From UHGV virus genome UHGV-1550212: DNA of 64,000 nucleotides. One strand, given 5' to 3'. The position numbers and the translations under genes are program-made. Numbering within the stretch: the first letter of the stretch is position 1; each line of letters starts with the position of its first letter. The stretch comes from a virus. The notes beneath the pieces are model-generated. The model ran no database searches, was not told where the DNA came from, and saw only the letters and a list, made by a program, of their open reading frames with translations. Shown piece after piece: positions 8,772 to 56,967 of the stretch.

Positions 8772-8805
8772 CTTGTATCTATGTTGTTGATTTTCAATTT
8801 AATAT

Positions 8806-8834
8806 ATTGAACAACATTTGTTGACATTTTGCAA
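8806..8834 (-). promoter_or_regulatory. sigma70-like promoter (TTGCAA-N17-TTCAAT)
   Basis: Upstream of 7944..8771. Confidence 0.45.
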
Positions 8835-8839
8835 CATTG

Positions 8840-9214: not shown

Positions 9215-9215
9215 A

Positions 9216-9707
9216 TCATTTACGTTTTTGTTTGACTCTTAATCGTTTTTGCATAAATGCTCTTGTAGCTTCACCAAAAGCCATCTCGTCTCGTTCGCCA
9301 CCACAAAGCTTTGCAAGCTTATTGAATGTGTCTTGGTCAATCATTGTGTACGTTGAGTTGTTGACCACATGCAATGCAAACTGAATCAGCGGTGCGCCTG
9401 GCTGCAAGCAGAATGGCTCTTTACCTGCATTGTACACTGCAAGATGAATCTCGCCATGATAGTCTGAATCTACAAACTCACTTGTTTTGATGATAAGATG
9501 ATTTCGTGAAATGCCCGACTTATTGTAGGCAATCAATGCATGACCGGCAGGCACAAGTGCTTTGATGCCAGATGGAATTGCAATGCCCTCACCAGGTTGC
9601 AGCATTGTTTGCACAAAATCATTGGGTATGCAAAAGTCCCATGCGCCAGATTCTGCTGTTGACTTAAAAGGACTTTCTACATTTCTGCATTTTGCAAAGA
9701 ATAACAT
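9216..9707 (-). CDS. dut: dUTP diphosphatase (dUTPase)
   Basis: dUTPase-like motifs SGAWDF, VDSDYHGEI, LIQFAL and C-terminal GGERDEMAFGEATRAF. Confidence 0.7.
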   Translation of the reverse strand: MLFFAKCRNVESPFKSTAESGAWDFCIPNDFVQTMLQPGEGIAIPSGIKALVPAGHALIAYNKSGISRNHLIIKTSEFVDSDYHGEIHLAVYNAGKEPFCLQPGAPLIQFALHVVNNSTYTMIDQDTFNKLAKLCGGERDEMAFGEATRAFMQKRLRVKQKRK

Positions 9708-11616: not shown

Positions 11617-12027
11617 TTAGAATAGAGATATTGTACAACAATTTGATTCAGGTTGCCATTCTACAATATGCGCATCAAAGTGTTTGTTAAGCCAATGTGC
11701 AAGTATGTGTCTATGACAAAATGCAGATAGTCTGCACCAACATAACAATACAATGTCTCGTTCGCCTGCAAGAATCTTTATGCGATGCAGCATCAAACTT
11801 ATCTGTGACAATGCAGCGTCAAGTTTTGCTGCATATTGCTCTGCATATTGTGCATTGTCAAGCAAGCCTGCTTTATGCAAACGAACAAGTGACATGTAAT
11901 CAGGCATGACGTCAGTCCATGTAAAATCTGCTATGAAGCCCTTAGGCTTTGTTGCAGACACTTGAACAAGAAATGCGTTATCAGGCAGATGCCTGCATGC
12001 ATAATATGAAGTTAAGATTCTTGTCAT
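11617..12027 (-). CDS. hypothetical protein
   Basis: 136-aa ORF with Cys/His-rich C-terminal segment (LLCWCRLSAFCHRHILAHW). Confidence 0.45.
   Translation of the reverse strand: MTRILTSYYACRHLPDNAFLVQVSATKPKGFIADFTWTDVMPDYMSLVRLHKAGLLDNAQYAEQYAAKLDAALSQISLMLHRIKILAGERDIVLLCWCRLSAFCHRHILAHWLNKHFDAHIVEWQPESNCCTISLF
11630..11658 (-). promoter_or_regulatory. sigma70-like promoter (TGGCAA-N17-TACAAT)
   Basis: 29 nt upstream of the polymerase N-part ATG (11601); lies inside the 3' end of the preceding gene. Confidence 0.5.
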
Positions 12028-13679: not shown

Positions 13680-13722
13680 CTTATTTATGATTTGATGTCT
13701 TGTTATATTATTATATGTTGAT

Positions 13723-13751
13723 ATTGTACAACGCTAAGTGTCATTTTGCAC
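13723..13751 (-). promoter_or_regulatory. sigma70-like promoter (GTGCAA-N17-TACAAT)
   Basis: Upstream of 13110..13679. Confidence 0.5.
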
Positions 13752-15567: not shown

Positions 15568-15600
15568 TATTATGTTCGAATATATGAGGACATATATTAT
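15568..15600 (-). promoter_or_regulatory. conserved structured leader element, copy 3 (core only)
   Basis: Core TTATGTTCGAATATATGAG(G/A)ACATATATTAT with inverted repeat TATGTTC/GAACATA; in the 5' leader of 15304..15540. Confidence 0.45.
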
Positions 15601-19000: not shown

Positions 19001-19373
19001 TCAAAGTCTCAGGCTGATTCAACAAGCTCATATGCACCATTGTACGCATATTGTTGTTTGCATCTACAAGTTGTGCATACAACTGCTCGCCATTATTTAA
19101 GCCTGTCAAGACTTTCATGTTTTGCTCAATGACAGCCATGCGACGTTGAATTGACGCAAAGCTTGGTACAGTAATGCTTGTTGTGCTGCCATCGTCATTT
19201 GTCAATGTTATTGTGACTGTATCTTCTGATGATGACACTGCAGCTTGCAGCACATCAAGGTATTGCAGACTATTGTCATACAGTTGCTTAATGTCTGACA
19301 GCAATTGTTGCATTGCATTTGTTGAAACTTCTGACATATGCTTAAAATGTGGTGTTTGAATATGTACAAACAA
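16032..19373 (-). CDS. large hypothetical protein (1113 aa), possibly virion-associated
   Basis: Long uninterrupted ORF, Ser/Thr/Asn-rich with a central coiled-coil-like stretch; no P-loop or catalytic motif recognised. Confidence 0.6.
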   Translation of the reverse strand: MFVHIQTPHFKHMSEVSTNAMQQLLSDIKQLYDNSLQYLDVLQAAVSSSEDTVTITLTNDDGSTTSITVPSFASIQRRMAVIEQNMKVLTGLNNGEQLYAQLVDANNNMRTMVHMSLLNQPETLKTLQGTIAEDNNVVALGNDMLERTTALGMHVQIDVTGQASSYLKQCQVTKYICSDAMFAALQQIVAQTGIEMSHAALLAEIDAHGWHTDDDYTLEDFTVNLRPRRAASSGSFKILKKQNANNGTIAVKLDSIVYDAIDAKAAGSLTLKVGDTLSDPTGSVLLQIVSIDKLSQTCILQRTAGLNALNVEVTDLVFVEPVVRKVVEVPLRHSEKFVLFLSPVHDAYNTVAQYSPAVLIDTATLTIRTATNELVNANSYMLSHGDASIGAYIAALTTDMLAPSQYAIKPNRLQLSAEAFKVIQLNTHLIDNTDKSRILSLYNQKRAVQQEMSVLDSDIASVMSKLNTNNFKNDVERQKASTQYVTLTQQRAERLQTLTNIIDEMLNINGAAYDALYNPKFRVRGFLPVQDPAISRFTAAQNIVQFKVQYRYASLNGTVAKADTFDIENAAGTITTAAFSTWNEVFTPLRRKIIVDGSIQWEPINSESIDAISCNQLEIPISANEIVQFRVKAIGEAGYPNVLNESEWSNIVSIQFPESLAASAMFVTLKDELAIDKQNVALENMLENKGLIKHIADAFSENNIYYAHNAQNIASGFFTSELAKVTTYEKLLSLSNEVAQLKDIILNQGSMLRVAIVDDEGNQTEILNGSSNVLFAGTYADKFDITSADNYGKVLTRQYWLKFYNIGAENISLYPRYHGDLSQHITDKLQDFADVYDVPVVLNSDAYDSNDILAPYGTRQYMGQTLYAGLKNVAGTEKLYVAAETPSSSTVETQNIDTSAQAANRKFVHKNGDDYEAIALKSTVSPDAYNLMSVQHPAWIAYSANKNEQTKATLTAAFAELAKFNSVIKSKYQQILPLELTAENAPKCAFTDNDVYAVGANSRGAFLLLNPTAVNQMQVSNSTDSAAYVVKPGENNALLIPLLFQARMTDAVGSSDIDSNAQQNKLSYTKTMNFICYIGGKEFTFDIKVYADFRSTTSIIGTIPVASITSIVR

Positions 19374-30901: not shown

Positions 30902-32779
30902 TCAAAAGCCTGCAAAGAAATCAGCATCAGCAGCATCTTGCTGAGGTGTCGACTCTTGTTCAATCACAAATCGACTGTGCAACTTTTGATTATGTTTTAT
31001 GTATGGCATAATGCGCCGGATTGATTCGTCAATGACAAATGTTTCACACCAGTCATTTGCATGTCGAATGCCTCGACCAACTGACTGTACGAAGCTTTGA
31101 TAGCACTTGTTGCGATACCAGCTTTCGTGATTTGCAGCCTTTGTTTTTACTACGATATCACCAAGTGACTGCCAAGGTAATTTTGCAACAATTTGACATC
31201 TACAACGATTGTCTGGTAAGTCAACGCCTTCAGTAATGCTAAAGCCTACAAGTACGTAGTTAGTGCCATCAGCAAGCATTGCAAGTTTATTTTGTTTGTC
31301 TTCAGCATTGACATATGTCAGCATTCTGCGTTTGTGCTTGCTGTTGTTGATGATATAGTTTGCAATGTCTCGTGTTGATGTGTGTATGATACAGTTGCAG
31401 TCATGTGTATCAAGAATGCTGTCAATCTTCTCAACAAGTCGAGGCATATTTGCTGCTTTATTCTTGTAGCTCAATGACAACGCAGGTTTGCACAGTACAA
31501 TGGGCGATTTGCTAAAATCCCAATCAGGCTCCATGTAGAATGCTACATAGTTTTTGATGCCATTGAGCGTAGCAAATGTATCAATGTCACCAATTGTCGC
31601 TGACATCCACAATTGTGCATGCGTAGCATCACTATGATGCACCAGTGTATTTGCAAGAAGCTCATCATTGACACATTTGAATTGCAAGCTGTTTGTTGCA
31701 GCATCAAGTACTACAAGCATGTCACCAGGTGATTGTTCAGTTGCATCAAGCATTGTAATGATTGAATATGACAACGTATCACAGCTGGCAACAAAGCGAA
31801 TGAACGCTTTCTCAAATTGACCAAGCATTTTGCCTGAATCCTGAAGTTCACGTAGCTTTTCATATGCAGTATGCAAAAAGTCTACAAGTTCTGACAACTG
31901 CTGTGCAAGCACTCTTGCTTCTGCTCGCATTGTTGCAATGTCATATTGTGTTGTTGCAAGCTTAATGACTGCTTTGACTTGTGCAAACACATTGTTGCGA
32001 AGTTCTACATATTTGTTCTGATTTTCAAGAGTCATGATACCTGCAATCAGTGACTCGGCCTTTGTGCAATTCTGAATGAATCGAGGACCAATTGACGTGT
32101 CAAGAAAGCCTGACAAAATGTCATCAATCTTATGGCACTCATCGAATATCGTCAATTCACGAGGCCCAAACAAGTTTTTGACGCAATTAACTTGTATCAA
32201 CCAGTACGCATAGTTAAGCACTGTGCAATTTGCTGCGGCAGCCTTTTGACGAGTCTGCAAATATGCGCATTTAGGTCCACATGGCAATGCAAGAGCTTTC
32301 TTTGATGACAACCCGTCTTGTTGGCATTTGCCCATACTGAATGGCAGACCATTGACATGACAAATGTAATTGTCTCGACCTTTGAGCATTACACAACTTC
32401 TGAATGCTGAAGTAGTTGTGTCTGCTTTAGCATTGTTGTCGTACAAATATTGTTGAATGAACTTGTCATACTGGTCTTGCAGCAGTTTATCAGAAGTCAG
32501 CACATACGACTTGAAGAATGTTGCGCAAAACATCGCAACCACAGATTTTCCCGTTCCAGTCGCTCCCTGCAATATGACATGTTGCCCATTTGCAATTGCT
32601 CGAATAATGTCGATGATTAGATGACGCTGAGTTGCATCAAAACGCGCTTGGTCCCACTTGCATGTCTTTGATTGCGCAAGATATGCTGAGAATTTATCAA
32701 TATGTGCTACAATAAGCTCATCAAGTTCTTGCTGAGATTGCTCTTCTGTCTTATGTTCTGCTGGTGTTAGTCTACCCAT
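30902..32779 (-). CDS. Rad3/XPD/DinG-like SF2 DNA helicase (Fe-S type)
   Basis: Walker A GATGTGKS, DECH box, four-Cys cluster between motifs (CHVNG...C...C...C), motif VI QSVGRGIRH; preceded by promoter and conserved leader element. Confidence 0.75.
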   Translation of the reverse strand: MGRLTPAEHKTEEQSQQELDELIVAHIDKFSAYLAQSKTCKWDQARFDATQRHLIIDIIRAIANGQHVILQGATGTGKSVVAMFCATFFKSYVLTSDKLLQDQYDKFIQQYLYDNNAKADTTTSAFRSCVMLKGRDNYICHVNGLPFSMGKCQQDGLSSKKALALPCGPKCAYLQTRQKAAAANCTVLNYAYWLIQVNCVKNLFGPRELTIFDECHKIDDILSGFLDTSIGPRFIQNCTKAESLIAGIMTLENQNKYVELRNNVFAQVKAVIKLATTQYDIATMRAEARVLAQQLSELVDFLHTAYEKLRELQDSGKMLGQFEKAFIRFVASCDTLSYSIITMLDATEQSPGDMLVVLDAATNSLQFKCVNDELLANTLVHHSDATHAQLWMSATIGDIDTFATLNGIKNYVAFYMEPDWDFSKSPIVLCKPALSLSYKNKAANMPRLVEKIDSILDTHDCNCIIHTSTRDIANYIINNSKHKRRMLTYVNAEDKQNKLAMLADGTNYVLVGFSITEGVDLPDNRCRCQIVAKLPWQSLGDIVVKTKAANHESWYRNKCYQSFVQSVGRGIRHANDWCETFVIDESIRRIMPYIKHNQKLHSRFVIEQESTPQQDAADADFFAGF

Positions 32780-32827
32780 TCTAAATGAGATTTAGATTAT
32801 GTTCGAATATATGAGAACATATATTAT
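32779..32827 (-). promoter_or_regulatory. conserved structured leader element, copy 1
   Basis: ~48-bp element with two inverted repeats (ATGTTC-N10-GAACAT and CTAAAT-CTC-ATTTAG) ending at the ATG of the Rad3/DinG-like helicase. Confidence 0.5.
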
Positions 32828-32837
32828 TTGTAAAAAT

Positions 32838-33437: not shown

Positions 33438-34319
33438 TTATCGTTTGAATTTGATGAAGTGTTCAGCATCAAGGCCCTCAAATATGTACGGGTCAAGAGT
33501 TTCCCAGAAGTTTGAGTATGTCGTTGTCTTTGCAATACTTGTCTGCTTTGACAAGTTCATGTTTGGATAGCCAAGCATTGCATAGTGTCGCTCATATATG
33601 TGCATTGACGTTGCATTATGCATATAAGCGCCAAGCTTAAGACCAAGTTCATTTGCGACAAGTTCTTGCAACAAAGTGAATGCAAACTGGTCGTTACAGA
33701 AGCCCCAAATGACATCATTGCTTCGCATATATGTTGTCAAGTACAGCTTATCACCACGAACATTGAAAACAAGATTCAATGTGCACGGCATATCTTTGCC
33801 AGTGTAGTTTGCATATTGCGGCTCATAAATGCTAATAACTGCTCGTCTTGTGCATTCATGATTTCGCAAACGTTCAATGACATCTGCAATCTGCTTGTGC
33901 CAAATTGCGCCATACTGTGAATTGACATTGACGCCATCATCACTGAACTGCTTCCAACGAGGCAAATAACGTTCAATGCATTCAACTGCAGGATTGGCTG
34001 TCATATACCATGCAAATTCTGCAGCAGCATTGAGCTTTTTCCATGGTCGTACATCAATCTTGATTTGTCGCTGTGAAGGGTCCTGAATAACTACAGACAC
34101 ATTCAGCAATTCTTTTGTTCGAGTCACTGTTTGTGCATTGTTGCCCTTTGATTCTACAAACTCACCTCTACAATGAAGTTCATACAAAATTGAGCGAAAT
34201 GCTTCTGTTGCAGTGTTTTCAACGATTGTCGTCTGTTGATAGCATAAATTTGACGACAATGCTTCAGCATCATTGTACTTTATGCTGTCATTGTCATAAG
34301 GTGAATTTTTTGTGTGCAT
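33438..34319 (-). CDS. ThyA-family pyrimidine hydroxymethylase/methylase, cytosine-specific type (dCMP hydroxymethylase-like)
   Basis: ThyA-like blocks EFAWYMTANP, YGAIWHKQ, TRRAVISIYEP, DMPCT (catalytic Cys), YMRSNDVIWGFCNDQFAF where the ThyA Asn aligns with Asp; start trimmed to 34319 to avoid a 116-nt overlap. Confidence 0.55.
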   Translation of the reverse strand: MHTKNSPYDNDSIKYNDAEALSSNLCYQQTTIVENTATEAFRSILYELHCRGEFVESKGNNAQTVTRTKELLNVSVVIQDPSQRQIKIDVRPWKKLNAAAEFAWYMTANPAVECIERYLPRWKQFSDDGVNVNSQYGAIWHKQIADVIERLRNHECTRRAVISIYEPQYANYTGKDMPCTLNLVFNVRGDKLYLTTYMRSNDVIWGFCNDQFAFTLLQELVANELGLKLGAYMHNATSMHIYERHYAMLGYPNMNLSKQTSIAKTTTYSNFWETLDPYIFEGLDAEHFIKFKR

Positions 34320-34344
34320 ATTTTGGGATGTTTGTTTTTTATTA

Positions 34345-35439
34345 TCATACAACGATAGTATCTCGTTTGCAATCTGTTTTGTCAAATATTGAACAACAAT
34401 ACGATGCAGATTGTTCTTTGATTTCAAGAGCTTCATCATTATCAAGTGATGAAATGCCATCTATGTATGCTTTTGCATTGCCAGCAATGTCATCATTTGT
34501 TAACAACGCTGCACGACGTTCAGTGCCAAAGAAGCCAAAGCACAATTGATGTTGCAGTGCTTCACGAGAAGTCTTGTCATCAAACTCTGATTTCATGTGT
34601 TGCATAAATTCGACAATATCATCAATGTCGCATTGAGTAAAGTCAATGCACAATTTATGCATGTACTTGAATCGTTTGTAGTCTGTTGCAAGAATTTCTG
34701 GGTGCACAATGAACAACGTCTTTTTGCTGTCTATTGGATTTGCAATGACTGATGCTTGAACATAATCGACAAGCATACCAGATTCACGAAGTTGCTCAAT
34801 TGTTTTGCCAAACACATGCCCAAGCGTGTCATCAAACCACTTCAAGTATGCTTCACTGTCTTCATCTTTTGACGCGCCAACAATGTAAATCTCATTGACT
34901 CCAAGTGCTTTGAGACGAGTATCAGACAACATAGTATTCAATTGATGCTGCACGTACAGCATTGGGCTGCTATGCAAAACCGTTTTAACAATCTCACAAG
35001 CAATGTCCATATATGCATAGTCAAGCTTTGCAGATTTTGACACATACACTGCACGTTGCTGCAATGGCTCAATTGCCGAGCATGTAGTTACAAAGTTGCC
35101 AACACATTCTGCTACTGCAATGTCATGCAAGTCATCTGCAATGTACACAATACTTGACAAGTCATCAAATGTTTGAACAAGTTGCTGAAGCTTTGTTTTG
35201 TAATTGCAGAGCATCAATGACTTGATGTTGCAATTACTTAGCATTGTCTTGATGAGTCGTTGACCTGCTTCAGTGCTGTCACCAGAAATGACATGCACAT
35301 CGCAGTCAAACCAGTTCAGCATGTCAATTGCATGCCGAACACCATATTGCATTTGTTTTGCAAACTTACCAGATTCATTGAACAGCATTTCACCTGACAT
35401 AATGCCGTCAAAGTCACATACGATTTGAAGTCTGTCCAT
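34345..35439 (-). CDS. HAD-superfamily (KdsC-like) sugar-phosphate phosphatase domain protein with unknown C-terminal domain
   Basis: IVCDFDGIMSGEMLFNESGKF (DxDG motif I), VHVISGDS, YIADDLHDIAV (motif IV), resembling KdsC/YrbI-type phosphatases. Confidence 0.5.
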   Translation of the reverse strand: MDRLQIVCDFDGIMSGEMLFNESGKFAKQMQYGVRHAIDMLNWFDCDVHVISGDSTEAGQRLIKTMLSNCNIKSLMLCNYKTKLQQLVQTFDDLSSIVYIADDLHDIAVAECVGNFVTTCSAIEPLQQRAVYVSKSAKLDYAYMDIACEIVKTVLHSSPMLYVQHQLNTMLSDTRLKALGVNEIYIVGASKDEDSEAYLKWFDDTLGHVFGKTIEQLRESGMLVDYVQASVIANPIDSKKTLFIVHPEILATDYKRFKYMHKLCIDFTQCDIDDIVEFMQHMKSEFDDKTSREALQHQLCFGFFGTERRAALLTNDDIAGNAKAYIDGISSLDNDEALEIKEQSASYCCSIFDKTDCKRDTIVV

Positions 35440-35803: not shown

Positions 35804-38800
35804 TTAACAAATTGATGATGTGCCATCAGTGTTTGCTACAACTGTCAATGCGCTATCAAACTCATCTTGCTGTAACACATGGTCAACTATGAGTGTTTTG
35901 CGAATTGCAGAAAGCTTAGTAAGCAACTGCATCAACACTTGCTGATAATTGATGGTGTTGACGTCATGCTCAGCGCCAACAATCTGCCCGTTGCTAAGCT
36001 TGCCGCTAATTTCATCAATGAGCAAGATGTTGCCAACTTTGTTTAAGCGTTGAGTCAAAATGAGATGCACGATTGCAAGACCTGCGAAAGTCCCTTCCAT
36101 ACCAGACATTTGACTTACACTTCGAATTGACTTCGAGCCCATCAAGTCAATCATCTTTAGCACATTGTTGTCATTGATGTCAAAGAACACTCGGTAGTTC
36201 AATGAATCAAGCAAATCATTGAGCTGTGCATTCAGTGATGTTGCAATTGCTGCAAAGACATATGAAACTAAGCCTCGTTTGCTTGTGCACTGCTTATATG
36301 CATTGTACACCAAGTTTGCAATGTTCCACTTTTTCGAAGCTTGCAAATCTTTCTTGAGAGCTTCAATTCGCACATTGTTTGCTGACAAGTCTGCTTGCAT
36401 TGTTGCAATTTCTGCATTGATGCTTAGCAGTTTTGAGTTTGCTTCAGTTTCATGCTGCTTAGCATCATCAATGTCGACTTGCAATGCAGCGTTTGCCACA
36501 ATATGCTGCTGAGTTTGCTGTGCATGTTCAAGTGCAAATGCTGCAGCAGTCTTGTCAATCTCAAGTTGTTTAAGAGTAGACTCATATGATGCTTTCTTAT
36601 CATATTCTGCTTGAGCAATTTCAAGTTCAGCATTTATTGCAGCCAGTTCTGATTCTACTGCAGATTTTGATTGCAATACATCTTGCTTTGCTTGTTCAGC
36701 TTTACGTTTGATGTCTGCAAGTTGATTTGTGATATCTGCAATTTGCGTTTTGACTGCTTCAACTTCAAGCAATGTTGCTGCAGTAGCCATTGGCTGTGCA
36801 ATGAATGCATCCAAGTCTCTTTGCGCATTGACTACAGTTCTTTGCAAGTCATTAAGCTTTTCTGCATGCATATCATATGCAGCTTTATGTGCTGTATTCA
36901 GTGCAGCAATTATTGCATTTGAATCTGTGACATCAATGATTGCTGCTTGCAATTGCTCAATCTCATACTTCAAATTGCCAATTTTGACAACATTCTCATT
37001 GAATTGCTCTGTCTTTTGCGCGTATTCTTGACGCAACTTAGCAAGCTCAGTTGACAACCACAGCTTGTATGCTTGCCCTGTGCCAGATGTCAAATCATTT
37101 GTGCACACAGGACATTTATCATTTTCAAGTTGCTTTTGCTTGTCTATAACATTGTCGATGTTTGTTTTTGCAGCAGATACTTCTGTTCTAAGTGCATTTT
37201 GAACAGTGTTGATGTCTTCAATTTGCTTTTGCAAAGCATCTATTTTTGCCCGAGTGTCTGCATTATATGACTTGCCAAGATTTACCAGCACAGAATCAAT
37301 GCGCTGCTTTGCTGCATCATATGCAAGCTTTGATTCATCAAGCTTTGTTCTGTACAATGATTCTGCATGCGCAACTTCTTTCTGCACTTTTGCAGATAGC
37401 TCATTCTGTTTTGTAAGCAGCTCAGCATATGTATTGTGCAGCTGTGAGCCAGATGCTATGACATTTGTGTATGCTGCATTAGCTTCATTGTCAATATTAG
37501 TGAGTTGTTGCTCAATCTGCGCTTTTACTGTTTGCAATTTAGACATGTCTTGCAATGCAAGTGCAGCAATGTCAAGCTCAACTTTGCGAATCTTTGCAAC
37601 GATGCTATCGACATTTGCTGTTGCATCTTCTACAGTTAAAATATCTGCAGGAATTTGATGCAGTCTTTTTGAGAGCTCTTCTACTTTTGCACGTGCTTTT
37701 GTAAGTTTTGCAGACCATTCCCTTTGATTATCTTGTCGTAACTGCAAAGAGTCATTGAGTTCATTGCAAGTTGTATTGAGAGACTCAAGTTCTGCTTTTA
37801 TTGCGACATCAGTCAATGCGGGCTTACTAAGGCCATCAAACAATGCGGCCTTTGCAGCATCATTAGAATTGCCCAGTTGCACGAATGTGTTGATGCCAAG
37901 AGTATCAAGCAACCAGTCATTCAATGAATTTGAATCCATTGCAATGATTTGGTCAAGTAATGTCTGATTGATGCAGACATATCGCGACAATTCCCAGATA
38001 GAACCAAAGATTGCGTATAGCGTGTCTTTGATTTCATGCTGTGGCACTACGTAGTCATCTGACAATCTTACAAGCTGCACAGTCTCATTGACTGCTGACA
38101 CGTTATCTCGCCATGAGCCATCTGCATTTATTCGAGAGCCCCGTTTGAATCTACGTTCAAGTGTTCGAGTTAATTTGTAGTGAACATTTTGACCAGCTAC
38201 TACATGTACAAATACACAAGATGCTTCAAGCTTATCATATGACTCATTGTCAATCAATTTGTCATTGAAGTATGTCAAAGCGTTCTGCTTTGTTGCTGCA
38301 GAAGACTGTCCAGCGTCAATAAAGCCAGTCAGCAGCCATTTAATGAGTCTGAAGATTGTTGTTTTGCCATTGCCGTTGTTGCCTCTAACTTGTGTAAGCT
38401 GTGCAAGATTGTCAAAGCTGACATCGACATCTTTCAATGCCATGAACTGATTTGCTTTGACATTTTGAATGACGTATTTTGCAACTTCAGTGTCAAAAGA
38501 CAATTTATCAATTTGCTCATCAATCAATGACTTGAACATGTCAACAAACTGCTGAGCGTCTTCAGTAGCAACTATAGCATTGCGTTCAATGTACGCATTG
38601 ACCCAGTCAAGTGCAGCATCTTTAAGCCATTCAGCAGTTTGAACTTTTTGCAGCAAATTGTCGCCATTTGCATCTACAGCATTGATTGAATCAATGACAG
38701 CAGAATCATACAGAATGTCAATTGCGGCAACAACGTATGAACTTACAAGATTCTGTGCAATGCGCTCAACAATGCCAGACAGTTCGGGCTTTGTGACCTT

Positions 38801-39730
38801 TGACTTGATTTTGATTTTGTTGATGCGACCAGGATTGATGAGTGCAATCTTATCTGTTTTGATGTCATTGTCAATTGTGATTGTATGATAATGCACAAGC
38901 TGCTCAAGCGAATGCCACTCTACTACAATTCGCTTGTTGTCAATATCGATGTCAAGCAAGTTGTAGCCATGTTCTGCAGTGCCCTGTTGCGTTGCAGTGT
39001 CATTCAACAAATAGTCGCCTTCACCAAAATCTCTGACAATTGGCGAGCCGCAGTATGTCAATGTCTTGGTGCCAGAAGTCCATATTGCATGTTTGTGAAT
39101 ATCACCCATTGCAACAAAGTTGCTGTGAAACTGTGTTGCATCTATACGACTGTCATTGTCACCACGAACAATGCAGTCATCAAAGTTGACGCAATTCTTT
39201 ACAGGGTCATGGAACAGCTCAATAACACACATTGATGACAATGCAGCAATCTGCGATTCGTCAAGTGATGCCCAAGGCGAATATGTGCCACCAGACCACT
39301 TCTCATTTTGAGCCCATACTGCAGCAGCAAAACCAGGTGCAAGCAGTTCAACTCTTGAACTGTTGATATACTTGATTCGCTTGTCATCAATTGCAGTTAC
39401 AAGCTTGTCAATGCTATCTGTCCACTGCATTTGTGAACCATCACCAGCATCAAATGTGTTATCACGTTGCTTCAAATCATGATTGCCAGCAGTAATGACA
39501 ATTTGAAGCTTGTCATTGACTTCAAGCATGCCTTTGAGCAGCTTAACAAACAGCGACTCTTCAAGTGAATTGCTGTTCCACTGCTCAAACACATCGCCAA
39601 CAATAAACACAAACTCAACCGACTTTGCTTTGTCAATTAGTTGTTTGTTGATGTGCTCATATTCTACGAAACGTCGTAAATGCCCTTGTCGAACATTATA
39701 TTGAATGTCTGCTATGTGAAGTGCTTTCAT
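35804..39730 (-). CDS. fused SbcD-SbcC (Mre11-Rad50-like) nuclease/ATPase
   Basis: N-terminal calcineurin-like phosphoesterase motifs (HIADIQ, IVGDVFE, TAGNHD, GDIHKH); Walker A GNNGNGKTT; long coiled coil with CPVC zinc hook; C-terminal LLIDE Walker B. Confidence 0.8.
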   Translation of the reverse strand: MKALHIADIQYNVRQGHLRRFVEYEHINKQLIDKAKSVEFVFIVGDVFEQWNSNSLEESLFVKLLKGMLEVNDKLQIVITAGNHDLKQRDNTFDAGDGSQMQWTDSIDKLVTAIDDKRIKYINSSRVELLAPGFAAAVWAQNEKWSGGTYSPWASLDESQIAALSSMCVIELFHDPVKNCVNFDDCIVRGDNDSRIDATQFHSNFVAMGDIHKHAIWTSGTKTLTYCGSPIVRDFGEGDYLLNDTATQQGTAEHGYNLLDIDIDNKRIVVEWHSLEQLVHYHTITIDNDIKTDKIALINPGRINKIKIKSKVTKPELSGIVERIAQNLVSSYVVAAIDILYDSAVIDSINAVDANGDNLLQKVQTAEWLKDAALDWVNAYIERNAIVATEDAQQFVDMFKSLIDEQIDKLSFDTEVAKYVIQNVKANQFMALKDVDVSFDNLAQLTQVRGNNGNGKTTIFRLIKWLLTGFIDAGQSSAATKQNALTYFNDKLIDNESYDKLEASCVFVHVVAGQNVHYKLTRTLERRFKRGSRINADGSWRDNVSAVNETVQLVRLSDDYVVPQHEIKDTLYAIFGSIWELSRYVCINQTLLDQIIAMDSNSLNDWLLDTLGINTFVQLGNSNDAAKAALFDGLSKPALTDVAIKAELESLNTTCNELNDSLQLRQDNQREWSAKLTKARAKVEELSKRLHQIPADILTVEDATANVDSIVAKIRKVELDIAALALQDMSKLQTVKAQIEQQLTNIDNEANAAYTNVIASGSQLHNTYAELLTKQNELSAKVQKEVAHAESLYRTKLDESKLAYDAAKQRIDSVLVNLGKSYNADTRAKIDALQKQIEDINTVQNALRTEVSAAKTNIDNVIDKQKQLENDKCPVCTNDLTSGTGQAYKLWLSTELAKLRQEYAQKTEQFNENVVKIGNLKYEIEQLQAAIIDVTDSNAIIAALNTAHKAAYDMHAEKLNDLQRTVVNAQRDLDAFIAQPMATAATLLEVEAVKTQIADITNQLADIKRKAEQAKQDVLQSKSAVESELAAINAELEIAQAEYDKKASYESTLKQLEIDKTAAAFALEHAQQTQQHIVANAALQVDIDDAKQHETEANSKLLSINAEIATMQADLSANNVRIEALKKDLQASKKWNIANLVYNAYKQCTSKRGLVSYVFAAIATSLNAQLNDLLDSLNYRVFFDINDNNVLKMIDLMGSKSIRSVSQMSGMEGTFAGLAIVHLILTQRLNKVGNILLIDEISGKLSNGQIVGAEHDVNTINYQQVLMQLLTKLSAIRKTLIVDHVLQQDEFDSALTVVANTDGTSSIC

Positions 39731-39731
39731 A

Positions 39732-39781
39732 TTCTAAATGAGATTTAGATTATGTTCGAAATATATGAGAACATATATTAT
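39732..39781 (-). promoter_or_regulatory. conserved structured leader element, copy 2
   Basis: Near-identical to the 32779-32827 copy (one A insertion); immediately upstream of the SbcD-SbcC ATG. Confidence 0.5.
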
Positions 39782-39789
39782 ATGTTGAT

Positions 39790-39818
39790 ATTGTACAACA
39801 TATGTTATCATTTTGCAA
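39790..39818 (-). promoter_or_regulatory. sigma70-like promoter (TTGCAA-N17-TACAAT)
   Basis: Upstream of the SbcD-SbcC gene; leader contains the conserved element. Confidence 0.55.
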
Positions 39819-40155
39819 GCATTTTGATGATTGCATCTATCACAGTTTCACTGAGCAAGTAGTAGACAACGCTTATCAGCAATGATATCAGTACTGCAGC
39901 TGTGATAAATTGCAACGCATTCACAATTGCACGCACAAATGTTATCTGCGTGTTGTATGCAAGCACTATGCAGCATAGCACAATAATGACACACCAGACT
40001 ACAATTGCATATGCAGGCATCAATGAATTTGTCCATATGCAGTACAATACAGTAATTAGCATCAAAAATGCTATTGCTCTGATAACTGACACAATGATGT
40101 CTATGTAAGGCTTCATTGCACGCAAATGAACTCTTGGTTTATGTTGCTTCATCAT
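39808..40155 (-). CDS. multi-pass membrane protein
   Basis: 115 aa, highly hydrophobic. Confidence 0.5.
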   Translation of the reverse strand: MMKQHKPRVHLRAMKPYIDIIVSVIRAIAFLMLITVLYCIWTNSLMPAYAIVVWCVIIVLCCIVLAYNTQITFVRAIVNALQFITAAVLISLLISVVYYLLSETVIDAIIKMLAK

Positions 40156-41390
40156 GACTTTATGTACAATTCTGCAAGTTGTCTGGTGTACAGTCGTGGA
40201 TTATGATATGCTTTCCAATACGCAGTAGACTTTATTGCAGCAAGAATTTCATCATAATGTTTGACTGCTTCTGCTACAACTTCATCAAGCACGCTCAAAT
40301 CTTCTACACTGACAAGCAACCATTTTTCTACAATATCAATGAACTCCTGATTGCAATTGAAGCCATACTTGTAGTTGCAAGTATCAAGTACAAGTGGAAT
40401 GCAATCATTTGTCAATGCTTCAAAAAATCTACGAAGACTGAAACAATTCTCATCATATGATGGAATGCTCAATGTAAACTTGGCAGTCTTGATGAGTTGC
40501 AAATACTCTTCGTATGGAATCAGAGGACCATTGTGCTTCCATTGATTATTGTGTCGTCTTGTCGTGTACTTGAACAAAAACTTTGAATTGTCAAGTTCAC
40601 AAAGATGGTCCATGCGTAAAATGTAGTTATAGCGGTCTCTTCTGTCAGGCCAACTGTCAGTCATCGCAAACACAAAGTCTCTTTGCTTGTCACATTTTGC
40701 TGACATACCTCTATGCTGACACATGCAATACCAATATTGCTGCGATGGGCTGAACTCAAACTTTGAATGATGCTCACTTCCATCTTTGCATTGCTGAACA
40801 TAAATGTTGTCAGGCACAAAGTGAAAATAAAAGTGTCGAATTTGCAAGTCATTGATGTAGTCAAGCTTATGCTGCAATGGGTCTTCACAGAAATTGTAAC
40901 ACTGAATATGCTTTGCTGCTGCGTACTCAGCAACTATGAACGTGCACATCCATTGCAATGCAATATCTTCACTCTTCAAAAAGTTTACAAGCGGCTCATT
41001 TGGATGCGCTTTGCATTCATTGAACATTTTGTACCACTTGCATTGCTCCATATCGTACTTTGATACTGTATTGCCATTAAAGAACGACACAGTGTCAATT
41101 TTGAATGCATCAAGTTGTTTATGCACAATGTCAAGTGCTTGTGCGTATGTGATTGTCTCATCAGACATTATCTGCGCAAACTTGATTGGATGCGCATGCA
41201 AATTTGCGATAGTGTCTGCCGACATTTTACGCTGTGTGTGATAATCGACATACAAAAACTGACACTTGTCTGTAAGCAATTCAAGCATTGCTACAGATTT
41301 CCATCGAATTGCTTGAAAGAAATTGAAGTGTGCAGTTTGAAAGATGAGATGCGTAGGTTTATCAGAATGAGTCAAAGTTTGCATGGACAA
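40152..41390 (-). CDS. putative glycosyltransferase-like protein (cassette copy A1)
   Basis: Paralog of 44432..45988 (shared EDPLQHKL, PSQQYWY, FTLSIPSYDENCFSLRRFFEAL...CIPLV); the last block resembles a GT-B C-terminal motif. Confidence 0.4.
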   Translation of the reverse strand: MSMQTLTHSDKPTHLIFQTAHFNFFQAIRWKSVAMLELLTDKCQFLYVDYHTQRKMSADTIANLHAHPIKFAQIMSDETITYAQALDIVHKQLDAFKIDTVSFFNGNTVSKYDMEQCKWYKMFNECKAHPNEPLVNFLKSEDIALQWMCTFIVAEYAAAKHIQCYNFCEDPLQHKLDYINDLQIRHFYFHFVPDNIYVQQCKDGSEHHSKFEFSPSQQYWYCMCQHRGMSAKCDKQRDFVFAMTDSWPDRRDRYNYILRMDHLCELDNSKFLFKYTTRRHNNQWKHNGPLIPYEEYLQLIKTAKFTLSIPSYDENCFSLRRFFEALTNDCIPLVLDTCNYKYGFNCNQEFIDIVEKWLLVSVEDLSVLDEVVAEAVKHYDEILAAIKSTAYWKAYHNPRLYTRQLAELYIKS

Positions 41391-43530: not shown

Positions 43531-43536
43531 GTTGAT

Positions 43537-43565
43537 ATTGTACAACATGCAAAATGCATTTGCAT
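43537..43565 (-). promoter_or_regulatory. sigma70-like promoter (ATGCAA-N17-TACAAT) with adjacent 17-bp tandem repeats
   Basis: Followed ~55 nt downstream by the terminator-like hairpin 43438-43481. Confidence 0.4.
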
Positions 43566-49235: not shown

Positions 49236-49264
49236 GTTCGTATTGTTTTATCATATATGAATAT

Positions 49265-49293
49265 ATTGTACAACATGTATTGAGCTTTTGCAC
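49265..49293 (-). promoter_or_regulatory. sigma70-like promoter, proximal of a tandem pair (GTGCAA-N17-TACAAT)
   Basis: 29 nt upstream of the GT-B gene ATG (49235). Confidence 0.5.
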
Positions 49294-52878: not shown

Positions 52879-54474
52879 TCAAAGCTTGAATTTTTGCACT
52901 TTTGCATCTACTGGCATCTTTTCAGCGTCATAGATTCGTTTTCGAGCAGCAAAGTGTTGCATGTCATAATTGCAGTAGCAATAGCCTTTGCGAAGCTTGA
53001 CAAGCATATCACTGTGAATTGTAAGCTTATGTGCAATATCAATAATGATTGCTTTCTGCTTAAGTGGATGCTTACGCAACAGTCGCCCAATTGACTGCAA
53101 TGTTACGTTGTCAGATTTGCCAATCATCAAGAATGCAGCATAAAACCAAGCATGCACAGATACGCCTGTAGATAATGTACCAGTTGTTGCAATCATGATG
53201 TGTCTGTCAGGCTCTGCTTCCATCATTGCAAGCATGTCTTTGCGTTCATGCAAGGGTACATCACCTCTAATGATGTGAACAACCTTGTCAACACCAGACT
53301 GCTGTATGAATGTTTGACAAGCATCATAGATGTTCTGCACATGGTCTCGTCGTTTGCAAAGTACAAGAGCATTTTTGTCAAGCGAACAAATGATTTTTGC
53401 AATGAGCTTGTTAGCATCGACATAGTTCATGCAATGATGTTGTTCTGCTGGAAGCAGTCTTGCAGTGTTATCAAACACTTCAGGATGCTCTTCAAGATAC
53501 TGCACAAATGGCGCATCATATTCTGCTGAATGCTCAATGACTACTCGTTTGATTTCAAAGTCAGACACAATGTTCTTTTCAAGTGCTTGAGCTACGCCAA
53601 ATGTGCCCAATATTGGCCCAATGTATGATTCAATTGTCAAACGAGCTGCAGTATGCTCAAGTGGCAATGAACCAGACACTCCAAGACGATAATGAGCTTT
53701 TGTGCAATGACTGAAGATTTCACGAATTGATGCTGCAGGTGCACCATGAGCTTCATCAGTTACAATGAAGTCAAACTGTTCGAAAAAGTCTGCTGGCATA
53801 TTGACAAGACTTTGATATGTGCCGACAACCATATCTGCATCTTGCATCTTGTACTCATTGCGAACACCTGAATGGATTTTGTAGAGTTTGTAATTCTTGT
53901 TTGCTAAATCTGACTCATTTTGTTGATAGCTGACAACAATATCGTCAAACGCTTGTGACACGAGATGCACCGAGGGCACAATCATAAGTGTTTTGCCATT
54001 GATTCTCTTGCTGTCTTTTAAGAAGCGACTAATTACATAAACAAGAGCTGTTTTGCCATAAGAAGTCGCAAGGCGCAAACAACATTTCTTGAATTTGCAA
54101 GCAGTCAAAATGAATTTGAGCTGGTCATCACGCATGTCAAATGGCATATCAAGACATTCTGACCATTGCTCAAGCTCTTCAAGTGACACAATGCGGTCAA
54201 AGTTGTCAATGAGGCCCTCAATCTTGACTTCATATGGAATTGGCTTACGCAATTGTAGGTCCCAGATACGCTTCCATAAGCCAAATGGCAGGTATACGCC
54301 ATTGAACACATAGCAAATTTGCCCATTCCAATCTGTTTTGCGTCCTTTGCGCTTATTGACTGCTGCTGCAACAAAGTTTGGCACTTCTGCAGTAGCTTCA
54401 GCATACAATTGCTTGACTTCCAAATCATTTGCTTCGACAATCTGAAGCAAATCGCCTATGACTTTAAGTCTCAT
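52879..54474 (-). CDS. SF2 DEAH-box helicase (UvsW-like)
   Basis: Motif I LATSYGKTA, motif II IVTDEAHGA, motif VI QSIGRLLR; start trimmed to the ATG at 54474 downstream of the terminator hairpin at 54491-54528. Confidence 0.75.
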   Translation of the reverse strand: MRLKVIGDLLQIVEANDLEVKQLYAEATAEVPNFVAAAVNKRKGRKTDWNGQICYVFNGVYLPFGLWKRIWDLQLRKPIPYEVKIEGLIDNFDRIVSLEELEQWSECLDMPFDMRDDQLKFILTACKFKKCCLRLATSYGKTALVYVISRFLKDSKRINGKTLMIVPSVHLVSQAFDDIVVSYQQNESDLANKNYKLYKIHSGVRNEYKMQDADMVVGTYQSLVNMPADFFEQFDFIVTDEAHGAPAASIREIFSHCTKAHYRLGVSGSLPLEHTAARLTIESYIGPILGTFGVAQALEKNIVSDFEIKRVVIEHSAEYDAPFVQYLEEHPEVFDNTARLLPAEQHHCMNYVDANKLIAKIICSLDKNALVLCKRRDHVQNIYDACQTFIQQSGVDKVVHIIRGDVPLHERKDMLAMMEAEPDRHIMIATTGTLSTGVSVHAWFYAAFLMIGKSDNVTLQSIGRLLRKHPLKQKAIIIDIAHKLTIHSDMLVKLRKGYCYCNYDMQHFAARKRIYDAEKMPVDAKVQKFKL

Positions 54475-54490
54475 GACATGACTTGTTATG

Positions 54491-54528
54491 AAAAAGAGGC
54501 TCAGACAGACATTGTTTGTCTGAGCCTC
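54491..54528 (-). terminator. intrinsic terminator
   Basis: 11-bp stem GAGGCTCAGAC/GTCTGAGCCTC, U5 on the minus strand; downstream of 54554..55684. Confidence 0.6.
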
Positions 54529-54553
54529 GAGCATCTTTGATGCGTTTGTGCTA

Positions 54554-55684
54554 CTACTTGAGCCCGTTGATGAATGCTTCAGTTTCAGCATCCATCGTTG
54601 CTGCTGCAGGTGCTGCTGCCGGAGCTGCTGCAGGTGCAGGTTCTGGTGCAGGCGCTAAAGCTGCTGCAAACGGGTCAATGGCTGTCTGAGCTGCTGGTGC
54701 AGTAGCAGGCGCAGCTGCCTGAGCTGTTGCAGGTGCAGGCTGAGTAGTCTGTGCCTGCTGAGCTGCTGACGAATTGATGACAATGTCAGGCCAGATATCC
54801 GACACATCCTTGTAGTTAGCAAGGCGCATCTTAACCTGACGCTTGATGTCATCAGAAGCTTCGTGGTAGCCCCACTCCTTTTCGACATTCGGGTACTCCT
54901 TGAGCATGTCGACAATCTGCTGCATAATTTGCTGCTTGTATGCAGGGTCAGTGTCATACTTCGCCTGGTCAACAAGCGTGCCATCTGCAAGCAGCATCGA
55001 CGATACGTTGGGCGAAATCGTCGAAGTCTCGTAGTCACGCATTTCAACGCCATTGACGTCTTTCAGCGTAATCTTCAAGAGAATGTCGTGGCCCTTAACG
55101 GGATGGAACATGTCCATAGGCTGAGCACCCATCTGGATGTCTTCGTCGGTAGGCTTCATTGCAGACATGCAACGCTTGTAGATGGCTGCAGGGAGTCGAT
55201 ATGGGAGTACTTTCCCAACGTTCTCAGGGTGCACTGAATCAGCCTTGATTTGCACGAGGCAAGTGTACTGACTCTGCATGCTGAACTCTCGCTTTGCAAG
55301 CGCTTCCTGCTGAGCATCCTTGGTATTGATGAGTTCCCAGTAGAATGCCGAAATGGGACACCATCCATAGGGCTTCATCAAATTTTCAGGATTTTCAGGA
55401 TGCGGATTCGGCGAGCTCGGCGAATTGTAGCGGAAGCCCTGATTAGCGCCAGTGCCAAACCAGTAGTAACGGACGATTGAAATCGGCACCGCGGGGTCAT
55501 TCAAGTTCGGCAGAATTCGAATGACTGCTCGATAGATTCGGTCCTTACTTTCGGAAGGCTTAGGATTAAAAAACTCAGGTCCTGCAGAACGTTCCGGCTT
55601 AGCAAAGCTTGCTACATTGTCCGGCTGGACATCAAAGATTGACAGCGGCTGATTACCGGTCTGCCCATTTTCAATTTGTGACAT
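54554..55684 (-). CDS. hypothetical protein with Ala/Pro-rich low-complexity C-terminal region
   Basis: 376 aa; visibly GC-richer codon usage than neighbours; C-terminal (AP/AAP)n linker then a short conserved-looking tip; possible abundant DNA-binding protein. Confidence 0.5.
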   Translation of the reverse strand: MSQIENGQTGNQPLSIFDVQPDNVASFAKPERSAGPEFFNPKPSESKDRIYRAVIRILPNLNDPAVPISIVRYYWFGTGANQGFRYNSPSSPNPHPENPENLMKPYGWCPISAFYWELINTKDAQQEALAKREFSMQSQYTCLVQIKADSVHPENVGKVLPYRLPAAIYKRCMSAMKPTDEDIQMGAQPMDMFHPVKGHDILLKITLKDVNGVEMRDYETSTISPNVSSMLLADGTLVDQAKYDTDPAYKQQIMQQIVDMLKEYPNVEKEWGYHEASDDIKRQVKMRLANYKDVSDIWPDIVINSSAAQQAQTTQPAPATAQAAAPATAPAAQTAIDPFAAALAPAPEPAPAAAPAAAPAAATMDAETEAFINGLK

Positions 55685-55771
55685 CGCAATAAAATTTTAG
55701 AAAGTTTAACAAAAAGTTTGAAATGAACTCTTCAGAAAAGCTTCAGAAGTTTATTTGTTATTTGTATATGT

Positions 55772-55800
55772 ATTGTATAACATGCAAAGTACTTTTGCAC
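55772..55800 (-). promoter_or_regulatory. sigma70-like promoter (GTGCAA-N17-TACAAT)
   Basis: Upstream of 54554..55684 with ~87-nt leader. Confidence 0.5.
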
Positions 55801-56967
55801 TTATCTTGCATGACCACAGTCATCTGCAAGCAGTTTAGCATGACCGCAGTCATATACTGCAACATAACCGACGTCAATCATCTCTTGTTCATCTTGACCG
55901 ATATCTTCAATATGTTCTTTTGTCTTCAAATGACACCAGTGCTTATGAATGGTTGACTTGTCATCTGACAACTGCGGGTTGAGCGCGAAGTCAGCTGAGT
56001 CTACTTGTTCACCTGCAAGATGCTTTCTAATGGCGTCAATGACTTCGTTGTCATCCATCCATTCGAATATTGTAATGCAAGTGTAGCCATGCTTAAGAGC
56101 AAGTTGAGTTTTGTCGAAGTGGTAGAATTTGCCAACTGGCTTATTGTGTTTTGTGCGCCCAGTTAAATATGCAAAGCCATATGTTGCATTGTGTGACCAA
56201 AGAGGATTAACTTCAATCAAAAGTTTGCAGTATTCATTACAATAGTCAAGGTCATATGACCATCGCCCAAGATTGACATTATCAAGCCCGCAATCAATAC
56301 CAAGTTCTTGCAGCAATTTGTCGTGCCACCAATGGTTTGCTCGTGATTTTACATGACCTTGAGCATCACGGCATTTAGTAGTCATACAAAACCATGGCAC
56401 ACCATGTCGTTCCATATTGACTTCTTGAACGCGTTCAAGATTGCCGCTCTTATTGCCATAACGTTGCTGTTTTGTTTGCAATGCAGCATCAATATTGCCC
56501 CATGCATTGCCATATCGTTTTACAACAGTTTGTTTGCGTTTTTCAACATCACAGCACTTATTGCCATATTTACGCAATTTAGTGTCAAATGCTTTTTGTG
56601 TATTGCCTATGCCACGTTTGCCCCATTTGCGCTCTTTGCCTTGTTGACATCGTTCTTGGTCACCCCATGTGCTGCCATATCGTTCTAAATTTGTTTGTCT
56701 ACGTTTTTCAACATTGCCTGCTTTGCATCCATGTCGTGCTAAATTTGTTTGTTGTTGTTTAGCTACGCAATCTTTGTTACGTGCAGGAAATTCAACGCCT
56801 AATGAACGTAGACAGCCAATTCTACGATTATAATTACGTTTAATATTGCCGTGTGATGTTTTACAAGGCCCATATCTTACAAACTCAGTTGTTCTCAACA
56901 ACTCATCTCGCTCTTGCTCAAGCTCTGCAATGCGCTTCTCAAGAGCTTCACCAGTTAGTGGCGTCAT
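55801..56967 (-). CDS. tandem-repeat protein (RYG/KYG units) with C-terminal nuclease-like domain; paralog of 1777..2976
   Basis: Same architecture: LTGEALEKRIAELEQERDELL coiled coil, repeats (ARHGCKAG, ERYGSTWG, KYGNKCC, RYGNAWG, RYGNKSG), C-terminal LLIEVNP...H. Confidence 0.55.
   Translation of the reverse strand: MTPLTGEALEKRIAELEQERDELLRTTEFVRYGPCKTSHGNIKRNYNRRIGCLRSLGVEFPARNKDCVAKQQQTNLARHGCKAGNVEKRRQTNLERYGSTWGDQERCQQGKERKWGKRGIGNTQKAFDTKLRKYGNKCCDVEKRKQTVVKRYGNAWGNIDAALQTKQQRYGNKSGNLERVQEVNMERHGVPWFCMTTKCRDAQGHVKSRANHWWHDKLLQELGIDCGLDNVNLGRWSYDLDYCNEYCKLLIEVNPLWSHNATYGFAYLTGRTKHNKPVGKFYHFDKTQLALKHGYTCITIFEWMDDNEVIDAIRKHLAGEQVDSADFALNPQLSDDKSTIHKHWCHLKTKEHIEDIGQDEQEMIDVGYVAVYDCGHAKLLADDCGHAR

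Follow-up and report, generated by a model that had tools for sequence, protein, structure and literature searches.

A minus-strand open reading frame (ORF) at 35804..39730 of the 64,000-nucleotide stretch of the virus genome UHGV-1550212 analysed here (hereafter the window) encodes, from an ATG start and without interruption, a protein of 1308 amino acids (aa) in which an Mre11/SbcD-type phosphoesterase is followed, from N- to C-terminus, by a complete Rad50/SbcC-type ATP-binding cassette (ABC) ATPase. It is by far the longest ORF of its region, and the ORFs that overlap it are short and spurious. We consider it likely that the gene specifies an authentic Mre11-Rad50 (SbcD-SbcC) enzyme in a single chain, belongs to a PAU-like jumbo phage, and has a product that would act as a homodimer in the processing of DNA ends. 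Natural Mre11/Rad50 fusions were already published in 2011, and the window protein is a divergent further member. The family to which it belongs is large and mostly metagenomic, and its fused nature is unremarked in annotations. The nuclease and ATPase activities are predicted from motifs, folds and conservation.

Domain composition and predicted folds

An earlier note, made from the letters of the window alone, had proposed that SbcD (Mre11) and SbcC (Rad50) are joined here in one 1308-aa polypeptide. This is borne out by the ORF itself, its motifs, profile matches, predicted folds and the conservation of the architecture, and direct translation recovered all the motifs named at that time, namely the phosphoesterase motifs, Walker A, CPVC and Walker B (Table 1). 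Pfam and PHROG profiles agree with the order of nuclease, then ATPase. Metallophos matches at aa 1-103 and AAA_23 at aa 427-690, both exceeding the curated cut-offs, and there are sub-threshold matches to Rad50_zn_hook at aa 862-883 and, in NCBIfam, to SbcD and Rad50 at the corresponding places. The profile phrog_35725, 1376 positions long, matches the protein in two stretches (E 5.9e-114, 383 bits), the best of which aligns aa 2-736 with profile positions 8-752. When a profile of the family was run against PDB sequences, it matched E. coli SbcD (6e-13), T. maritima Mre11 (6e-11), P. furiosus Mre11 (positions 4-241, E 4e-10), two Rad50 zinc-hook constructs (1l8d, 9e-8; 6zff, 4e-8), Rad50 head domains (about 1e-6) and the nucleotide-binding domain 3tho_A (2.5e-6). 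Myosins and other coiled-coil proteins topped that search and were disregarded as compositional matches to the coiled-coil region.

Two overlapping AlphaFold2 models, of aa 1-720 and aa 415-1308, each built with 17-sequence alignments, have mean predicted local distance difference test (pLDDT) values of 85.4 and 83.6, respectively. In the models, the phosphoesterase sandwich and its capping strands extend to about residue 300, and the first ATPase strand starts at residue 417; aa 350-357 fall below a pLDDT of 50 in the model of aa 1-720. The model of aa 415-1308 contains two antiparallel coiled-coil arms of 227 and 265 residues, with CPVC at the apical loop, and the ascending arm is made of helices at aa 641-688, 700-721, 732-759 and 762-867. 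Both halves match solved structures, of Mre11/SbcD and of Rad50/SMC proteins, respectively. All top 50 Foldseek matches of the aa 1-720 model in the PDB are Mre11/SbcD, including P. furiosus Mre11 1ii7 (E 8e-13, target-normalised template modelling (TM) score 0.65) and 7dog (TM 0.68), and E. coli and S. aureus SbcD are found among its matches as well. The best match of the aa 415-1308 model is Rad50 7zr1 (E 1e-19), SMC-class proteins come next, and E. coli SbcC is matched with a target-normalised TM of 0.60.

The ATPase part also resembles SMC-like defence ATPases such as Lamassu LmuB and Wadjet JetC, and the protein might accordingly be imagined as a weapon of conflict, which destroys host or competitor DNA or counters defences. 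We regard this as improbable. It is true that PADLOC LmuB models match the ATPase part when the fusion protein is scanned (best E 1.6e-16), that Lamassu and Wadjet structures are among the fold matches, and that cellular carriers of such fusions usually keep the canonical pair too, suggesting a different role there (PMC3175470). In the Lamassu and Wadjet systems, the SMC-like ATPase is encoded next to partner genes (LmuA and LmuC, or JetA, JetB and JetD, respectively). However, the defence matches cover the generic Rad50/SMC ATPase and coiled coil only, while the nuclease is of the Mre11 type and the coiled coil is tipped by a zinc hook of the Rad50 kind. Moreover, lytic jumbo phages carry the gene as a syntenic core gene within their replication module. 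It is the sole SbcCD-like gene seen within the 64-kb window, where hidden Markov models of the family found no second SbcC- or SbcD-like sequence, and a comparative study counts SbcC and SbcD among the core recombination genes that almost all jumbo phages have (PMC7824862).

Conservation of the active sites

The window protein was aligned by MAFFT with 155 full-length homologues (n=156). Among the nuclease residues, N83, H84, H174 and H212 are present in all 156 proteins, and D8 and D46 in 155 each. On the ATPase side, K456 is found in 156, D1239-E1240 in 155, G1210 in 154, S1209 in 152 and H1284 in 150 proteins, and the hook cysteines C873 and C876 are kept in 155/156; the Gln of the Q-loop is present in only 87/156. 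Since the catalytic positions are near-invariant in 156 full-length homologues, both activities appear to be under selection.

The family also has motif variants of its own. Motif I is D-x-Q and not D-x-H, with Gln at position 10 (nucleotides (nt) 39701-39703) in 145 of the 156 proteins and His in 10. Motif V is G-D-x-H and not G-H-x-H, with Asp at position 210 (nt 39101-39103) in 146 proteins and His in 10. When the two positions are read together, the pair is Gln/Asp in 135 proteins, Gln/His in 10 and His/Asp in 10, but never His/His, which suggests a constraint on the metal centre. The ATPase signature is S-G-M-E/Q, a variant of the canonical (L)SGG(Q/E), with Met in 153/155. At the acidic position of the D-loop, canonically Asp, 120 proteins of the alignment have Asn and 25 have Ser. 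In the literature searched, we did not find D-x-Q, G-D-x-H, SGM(E/Q) or the connector of about 8 residues discussed below described for the family.

With Gln in place of the motif I His, the nuclease half could in principle be dead or repurposed, leaving a protein that is only an ATP-driven DNA tether or sensor. The prevalence of Gln at position 10 and of Asp at position 210, and the lack of any member with both canonical histidines, would agree with such a loss. However, D8, D46, N83, H84, H174 and H212 are practically invariant, as is not expected of a dead site; Gln and Asp side chains are still able to bind metal ions; and R555 of Mimivirus bears the same His-to-Asp change. In E. coli 5′-nucleotidase, which belongs to the same superfamily, Gln serves as a metal ligand. 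A dead nuclease is thus very doubtful in our view, and we favour a di-metal site that is modified but predicted to be active, given that the replacement side chains can bind metal.

The junction between nuclease and ATPase

Three segments with different behaviour separate the capping region from the ATPase. The first (aa 346-365), leading from the capping region to two helices, is poorly predicted and varies from 8 to 48 residues across the 156 proteins. The second, made of the two helices, keeps to 42-45 residues. The third, connecting the helices to the ATPase, has a median length of 8 residues (interquartile range 8-8, range 6-10), while its sequence is weakly conserved. By analogy with solved complexes, helices 366-383 and 389-408 would hold the position of the C-terminal helix-loop-helix of Mre11, that is, its Rad50-binding domain. 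In the T. maritima complex, the C-terminus of Mre11 lies about 28 Å from the N-terminus of Rad50, a distance that could be bridged by 9-12 residues (PMC3175470). A fixed short tether with a variable linker upstream fits an arrangement in which the helix-loop-helix is docked and the nuclease is mobile.

The same segments bear on the possibility that the polypeptide is a precursor, from which cleavage in the flexible segment, or an internal start of the ATPase, would produce a conventional two-subunit enzyme. A segment of low confidence and variable length does exist at aa 346-365, and there is one possibly unfused relative: P0147 (439 aa, L010 120-1439) carries the family motif DIQ along with GDFFE and GDIH, and ends in a region like the helix-loop-helix, after which comes an unrelated small ORF. 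P0147 may be an unfused relative of the nuclease half, but its contig of only 1.7 kb is uninformative on a separate Rad50 gene. Furthermore, the variable segment precedes the helix-loop-helix-like helices, so that a cut there would part the nuclease from its presumed Rad50 anchor, whereas the real domain junction is the fixed 8-residue connector. No conserved internal start was seen. We therefore give a processed precursor very little credence and take the single chain to be the working form.

The fused architecture across homologues

With aa 1-720 as the query, a stretch that spans the junction, HMMER was run exhaustively against 1.84 billion representative proteins and yielded 199 clusters at 50% identity. 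Among the best 150 of these clusters, 133 representatives are at least 1100 aa long (median 1326), and 90 of the latter align from the nuclease through Walker A as one stretch. All of the 18 homologues found in a first database search are 1284-1401 aa long, and 15 of them cover 97-100% of the query, the lowest identity being 22%. The closest relatives are metagenomic, at 97%, 51% and 39% identity. The first of them, P0001, is likewise 1308 aa long and is found on contigs from three separate metagenome samples; its downstream neighbours are alike in all three contigs, and its upstream neighbours in the two longer ones.

Homologues are also present in cultured phages. In a tblastn search of GenBank phages, Chryseobacterium phages MA9V-1/2 and Tenacibaculum phages PTm1/PTm5 cover 98-100% of the query in one aligned piece. 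Sphingomonas phage PAU covers 81% in two pieces, and Tenacibaculum phage pT24 is matched only in the C-terminal part. For MA9V-1, PTm1, PAU and pT24, whose records were inspected, the annotation shows in each case a single coding sequence (CDS) of 1301-1326 aa. At the DNA level, megablast with the fusion-gene region as its sole query gave no match in 50,697 phage records. The source genome is therefore not in that collection, and it seems to belong to an uncultured phage that is distantly related to the PAU group.

That adjacent sbcD and sbcC genes were joined artificially through a missed stop codon or frameshift, a caveat raised by the earlier note and favoured by no result here, is a negligible possibility and is refuted because the uninterrupted frame is conserved across divergent genomes: in P0001 from three independent metagenome assemblies, in collinear full-length homologues at 22-51% identity, in the single CDSs of cultured phages and in the 90 representatives that cross the junction in one stretch, the junction itself having conserved residues and a connector of fixed length.

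A profile search revealed further size classes of about 1050, 1220 and 1262 aa (overall P0194-P0200, P0192/P0193 and P0214/P0223-P0229), all with precomputed Metallophos matches. The classes of about 1050 and 1220 aa also have AAA_23 and/or SMC_N matches. In the class of about 1262 aa, Metallophos is the sole Pfam match, yet the JGI name gives both SbcCD subunits. These size classes suggest that there are more lineages of fusions than the 13 on the 2011 list.

Proposed mechanism and role

The architecture allows a mechanism to be proposed by reference to the two-subunit complexes. Two chains would pair as a homodimer equivalent to M2R2, with the nuclease domains pairing with each other. The two helices of each chain would dock on the coiled-coil base of the same chain, as the helix-loop-helix of Mre11 does in solved complexes. 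Binding of ATP would engage the ATPase heads, and the hooks would be joined via zinc. Through ATP binding and hydrolysis, the nuclease may be switched between blocked and cutting positions at DNA ends and hairpins. In the phage, the enzyme would probably process DNA ends in the course of repair and of recombination-dependent replication, like T4 gp46/gp47, which serve recombination-dependent replication (PMC3175470).

Several observations weigh against this assignment as a functional single-chain enzyme. First, the metal site is non-canonical, with Gln for a metal-binding His in motif I and Asp for the first His of motif V. Second, the ATPase signature is SGME versus SGGQ/E, and the Asp of the D-loop is replaced by Asn or Ser. 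Third, the predicted template modelling score (pTM) is about 0.5 in the half models, so that the geometry between domains is uncertain, and the helix-loop-helix and dimer arrangements lie outside the models. Fourth, the window covers 64 kb of the genome, and an unfused SbcCD could be encoded outside it. Finally, no experimental or functional study of any natural Mre11-Rad50 fusion was found in the literature searched.

Table 1. Features of the single-chain Mre11-Rad50 gene and its upstream elements in the window
Feature	Residues	Position	Strand	Basis
Single-chain Mre11/SbcD-Rad50/SbcC gene, stop codon included		35804..39730	-	ORF, domains, 97%-identical homologue
Mre11/SbcD-type nuclease and capping domain	1-300	38831..39730	-	Translation, model (pLDDT about 90), fold and profile matches
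Motif I, HIADIQ	5-10	39701-39718	-	Translation
Motif II, GDVFE	45-49	39584-39598	-	Translation
Motif III, GNHD	82-85	39476-39487	-	Translation
Motif IV, H174	174	39209-39211	-	Translation
Motif V, GDIH	209-212	39095-39106	-	Translation
Small alpha/beta module (303-341), then flexible segment of variable length (346-365)	303-341, 346-365	38636..38830	-	Model; alignment of 156
Two long helices	366-383, 389-408	38507..38635	-	Model; length conserved at 42-45 residues
Connector KLSFDTEV, 8 residues, from two-helix segment to first ATPase strand	409-416	38483..38506	-	Alignment
Rad50/SbcC ATPase N-lobe	417-640	37811..38482	-	Pfam, models, motifs, profile
Walker A, GNNGNGKT	450-457	38360-38383	-	Translation
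Q-loop, Q589	589	37964-37966	-	Translation
Ascending coiled-coil arm	641-867	37130..37810	-	Model
Zinc-hook apex	868-883	37082..37129	-	Translation, conservation, profile match
Zinc hook, CPVC	873-876	37103-37114	-	Translation
Descending coiled-coil arm	884-1148	36287..37081	-	Model
Rad50/SbcC ATPase C-lobe	1149-1308	35807..36286	-	Model, conservation, motifs
Signature, SGME	1209-1212	36095-36106	-	Translation
Walker B, LLIDE	1236-1240	36011-36025	-	Translation
H-loop, DH	1283-1284	35879-35884	-	Translation
5′ leader, two predicted hairpins		39731..39785	-	Repeat, alignment, folding
Promoter-like dodecamer GTTGTACAATAT		39788..39799	-	Directly upstream of leader
Near-identical leader copy, DinG/XPD-like helicase gene 30902..32779		32778-32830	-	Alignment
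Third, partial leader copy: first hairpin and TTCGAACATAAT		~15569-15597	-	Precedes small membrane-protein ORF, likely start ATG 15540

Leader and promoter-like motif

The earlier note had also stated that the gene carries a conserved leader element. A leader is indeed present, but it is not a general one: the full element is common only to the fusion gene and the DinG-like helicase gene, the third site being partial (Table 1). The 28-mer CGAACATAATCTAAATCTCATTTAGAAT has exactly two copies in the window, upstream of these two genes, where 0 would be expected by chance, and an alignment of the two upstream regions is near-identical over about 50 nt. The leader RNA is predicted to form a pair of hairpins (dG -11.4 kcal/mol, z -3.8), with 3 nt between the end of the second and the AUG. 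Relative L005, at 97% identity, keeps the leader; two changes in it preserve the pairing as G-U, and the second hairpin is duplicated. The leader is absent from the 39%-identical relative (L008), and judged from this distribution it is therefore lineage-specific. Since an Rfam scan of the window found no match, leader included, it is not a known RNA family. The shared leader suggests co-expression or co-regulation of the fusion gene and the DinG/XPD-type helicase gene.

Exact copies of the dodecamer GTTGTACAATAT occur at 11628-11639, 13721-13732, 39788-39799, 43535-43546 and 49263-49274, all on the minus strand, which is the coding strand in each case. With up to two mismatches allowed, there are 29 matches versus 12.5 expected. 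Four of the five exact copies (all but 43535-43546) were compared with gene starts, and these are intergenic and upstream of genes. The dodecamer is unlike a standard sigma-70 promoter and may represent a phage-specific promoter class.

Genomic context

The window represents a module for replication and nucleotide metabolism, with genes for DNA polymerase, helicases of two kinds, and thymidylate-synthase-like and glycosyltransferase-like proteins, and nearly all of its long ORFs are on the minus strand. Gene order around the fusion gene is kept in the relatives at 97% and 39% identity, and the ORFs flanking it are without Pfam domains. A tRNA scan of the window found no tRNA genes. The GC content is about 40% throughout, with a local rise to 46.5% at 54001-56000.

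The thymidylate-synthase-like ORF 33438-34460 (minus strand) matches Pfam Thymidylat_synt only over aa 144-296 of 340. It overlaps the upstream 364-aa ORF 34345-35439 (minus strand) by 116 nt, and gene calls in close relatives make the product 293 aa long. Because of this overlap and the 293-aa calls, the true start is probably an internal ATG. L008 bears two thymidylate-synthase-like genes. Such genes could encode pyrimidine hydroxymethylase-type enzymes of DNA modification, and the DNA of PAU is reportedly heavily modified (PMC7824862). Weak exostosin/GT47-like glycosyltransferase matches are found just upstream of the fusion gene, at 40152-41390 (minus strand), and genes with such matches are conserved in relatives (L005 93-1211; L008 831-2084 / 8179-9414). 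Glycosylation of DNA or of the surface are possible functions. Finally, the 1113-aa ORF 16032-19373 (minus strand) has no Pfam domain but matches phrog_29329, of unknown function (E 7e-156), and is thus a large conserved phage protein.

Significance of the family

In the records and papers of the PAU group, the protein is labelled 'metallo-phosphoesterase' or 'DNA repair exonuclease', and its Rad50 half is unmentioned. The jumbo-phage family of about 1300 aa that bears these names should be renamed Mre11-Rad50 (SbcDC) fusion proteins, a reading that also accounts for the SbcC apparently missing from the PAU-group genomes. With 199 clusters, almost every one of them fused, the size of the family lends support to the view, put forward in 2011, that these fusions have their chief reservoir in viruses. 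To a specialist the fusion itself is not surprising; the Gln and Asp ligands, SGM(E/Q) and the length-locked tether are concrete and testable peculiarities. A natural single-chain enzyme, with its fixed 1:1 stoichiometry and defined tether, would be convenient for structural and single-molecule study of the control of the nuclease by ATP. Likewise, the contribution of the canonical histidines could readily be tested on the conserved Gln and Asp, the presumed metal ligands of the family.

A bolder proposal is that the family, together with its approximately 200 metagenomic clusters, forms a specialised lineage, combining a rewired di-metal centre, SGM(E/Q), a length-locked tether that forces docking on the same chain and, in the phage of the window, co-regulation by the leader with a DinG-type helicase as a module for end resection. 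As a joint claim we put this forward tentatively and consider it rather unlikely. If true, the fusion would be a mechanistically specialised variant, beyond two subunits stitched together.

Comparison with known systems

E. coli SbcCD, the archaeal and eukaryotic Mre11-Rad50 complexes and T4 gp47/gp46 have both folds of the window protein, with the phosphoesterase and ABC-ATPase motifs and the zinc hook, and probably also the anchoring of a helix-loop-helix on the coiled-coil base. They consist of two chains and not one, and the window family differs from them in motif I, motif V, the signature and the D-loop. T4 gp46 has a far shorter coiled coil than its cellular counterparts (PMC3175470), in contrast to the approximately 230-265 residues per arm in the window protein.

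Natural fusions were described by Yoshida, Claverie and Ogata in 2011 (Virol J 8:427, PMC3175470), who listed Mimivirus R555 and 12 others. The carriers included, besides R555 (1351 aa), the Bacillus jumbo phage 0305phi8-36, plasmids of Clostridium kluyveri and Deferribacter and several eukaryotes, and many aquatic metagenomic homologues were predicted to be phage-derived (PMC3175470). The domain order of the fusions was found to suit the known Mre11-Rad50 complex (PMC3175470). R555 resembles the window protein in its order of Mre11 and then Rad50, in its similar size and long coiled coil, in being the only copy seen in the virus (within 64 kb for the window phage), and in having Asp for the first His of motif V. 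It differs in having D-x-H in motif I and GDxxH in motif II, where the window family has D-x-Q and GDxxE. Trees in the 2011 study suggested several independent fusion events (PMC3175470), so that common descent of the fusion itself is one possibility among others.

When the N-half model was searched against BFVD, a library of viral structures, the best matches were PAU gp288, pT24 and PTm1 (E 5e-50 to 6e-44). Next came giant-virus fusions, matched over both domains at E 7e-33 to 5e-23 and 13-17% identity, from Bodo saltans virus, Klosneuvirus, Yasminevirus, Harvfovirus, Tupanvirus, Tetraselmis virus and Catovirus. The 0305phi8-36 protein was matched at 2e-15, and unfused phage SbcD/gp47 proteins rank lower, partly since only one domain can be matched. 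At the sequence level, cluster look-ups and the profile search returned no named giant-virus sequence, so the link to giant viruses comes from the BFVD fold search alone.

Other enzymes also combine a Rad50-like ATPase with a nuclease in one chain. The anticodon nuclease RloC has a Rad50-like ATPase and a zinc hook, and cuts tRNA, and the OLD-family nucleases join an ABC/Rad50-like ATPase to a Toprim nuclease domain. In both, as proposed here, the ATPase controls the nuclease of the same chain, whereas the nuclease domains, targets and domain order are different. No similarity of the fusion protein to RloC or OLD was detected beyond the ATPase.

Also among the closest known systems is the PAU group (PAU gp288, PTm1/PTm5 ORF-075, pT24 gp019 and MA9V-1/2 ORF70; phrog_35725), whose proteins are full-length collinear homologues. 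All motifs are common to them and the window protein, including D-x-Q, CxxC and SGM(E/Q), and the genome neighbourhoods are similar in type. They differ from the window protein in sharing only 20-26% identity with it, without a match at the DNA level, and the window lineage is a separate, uncultured one.

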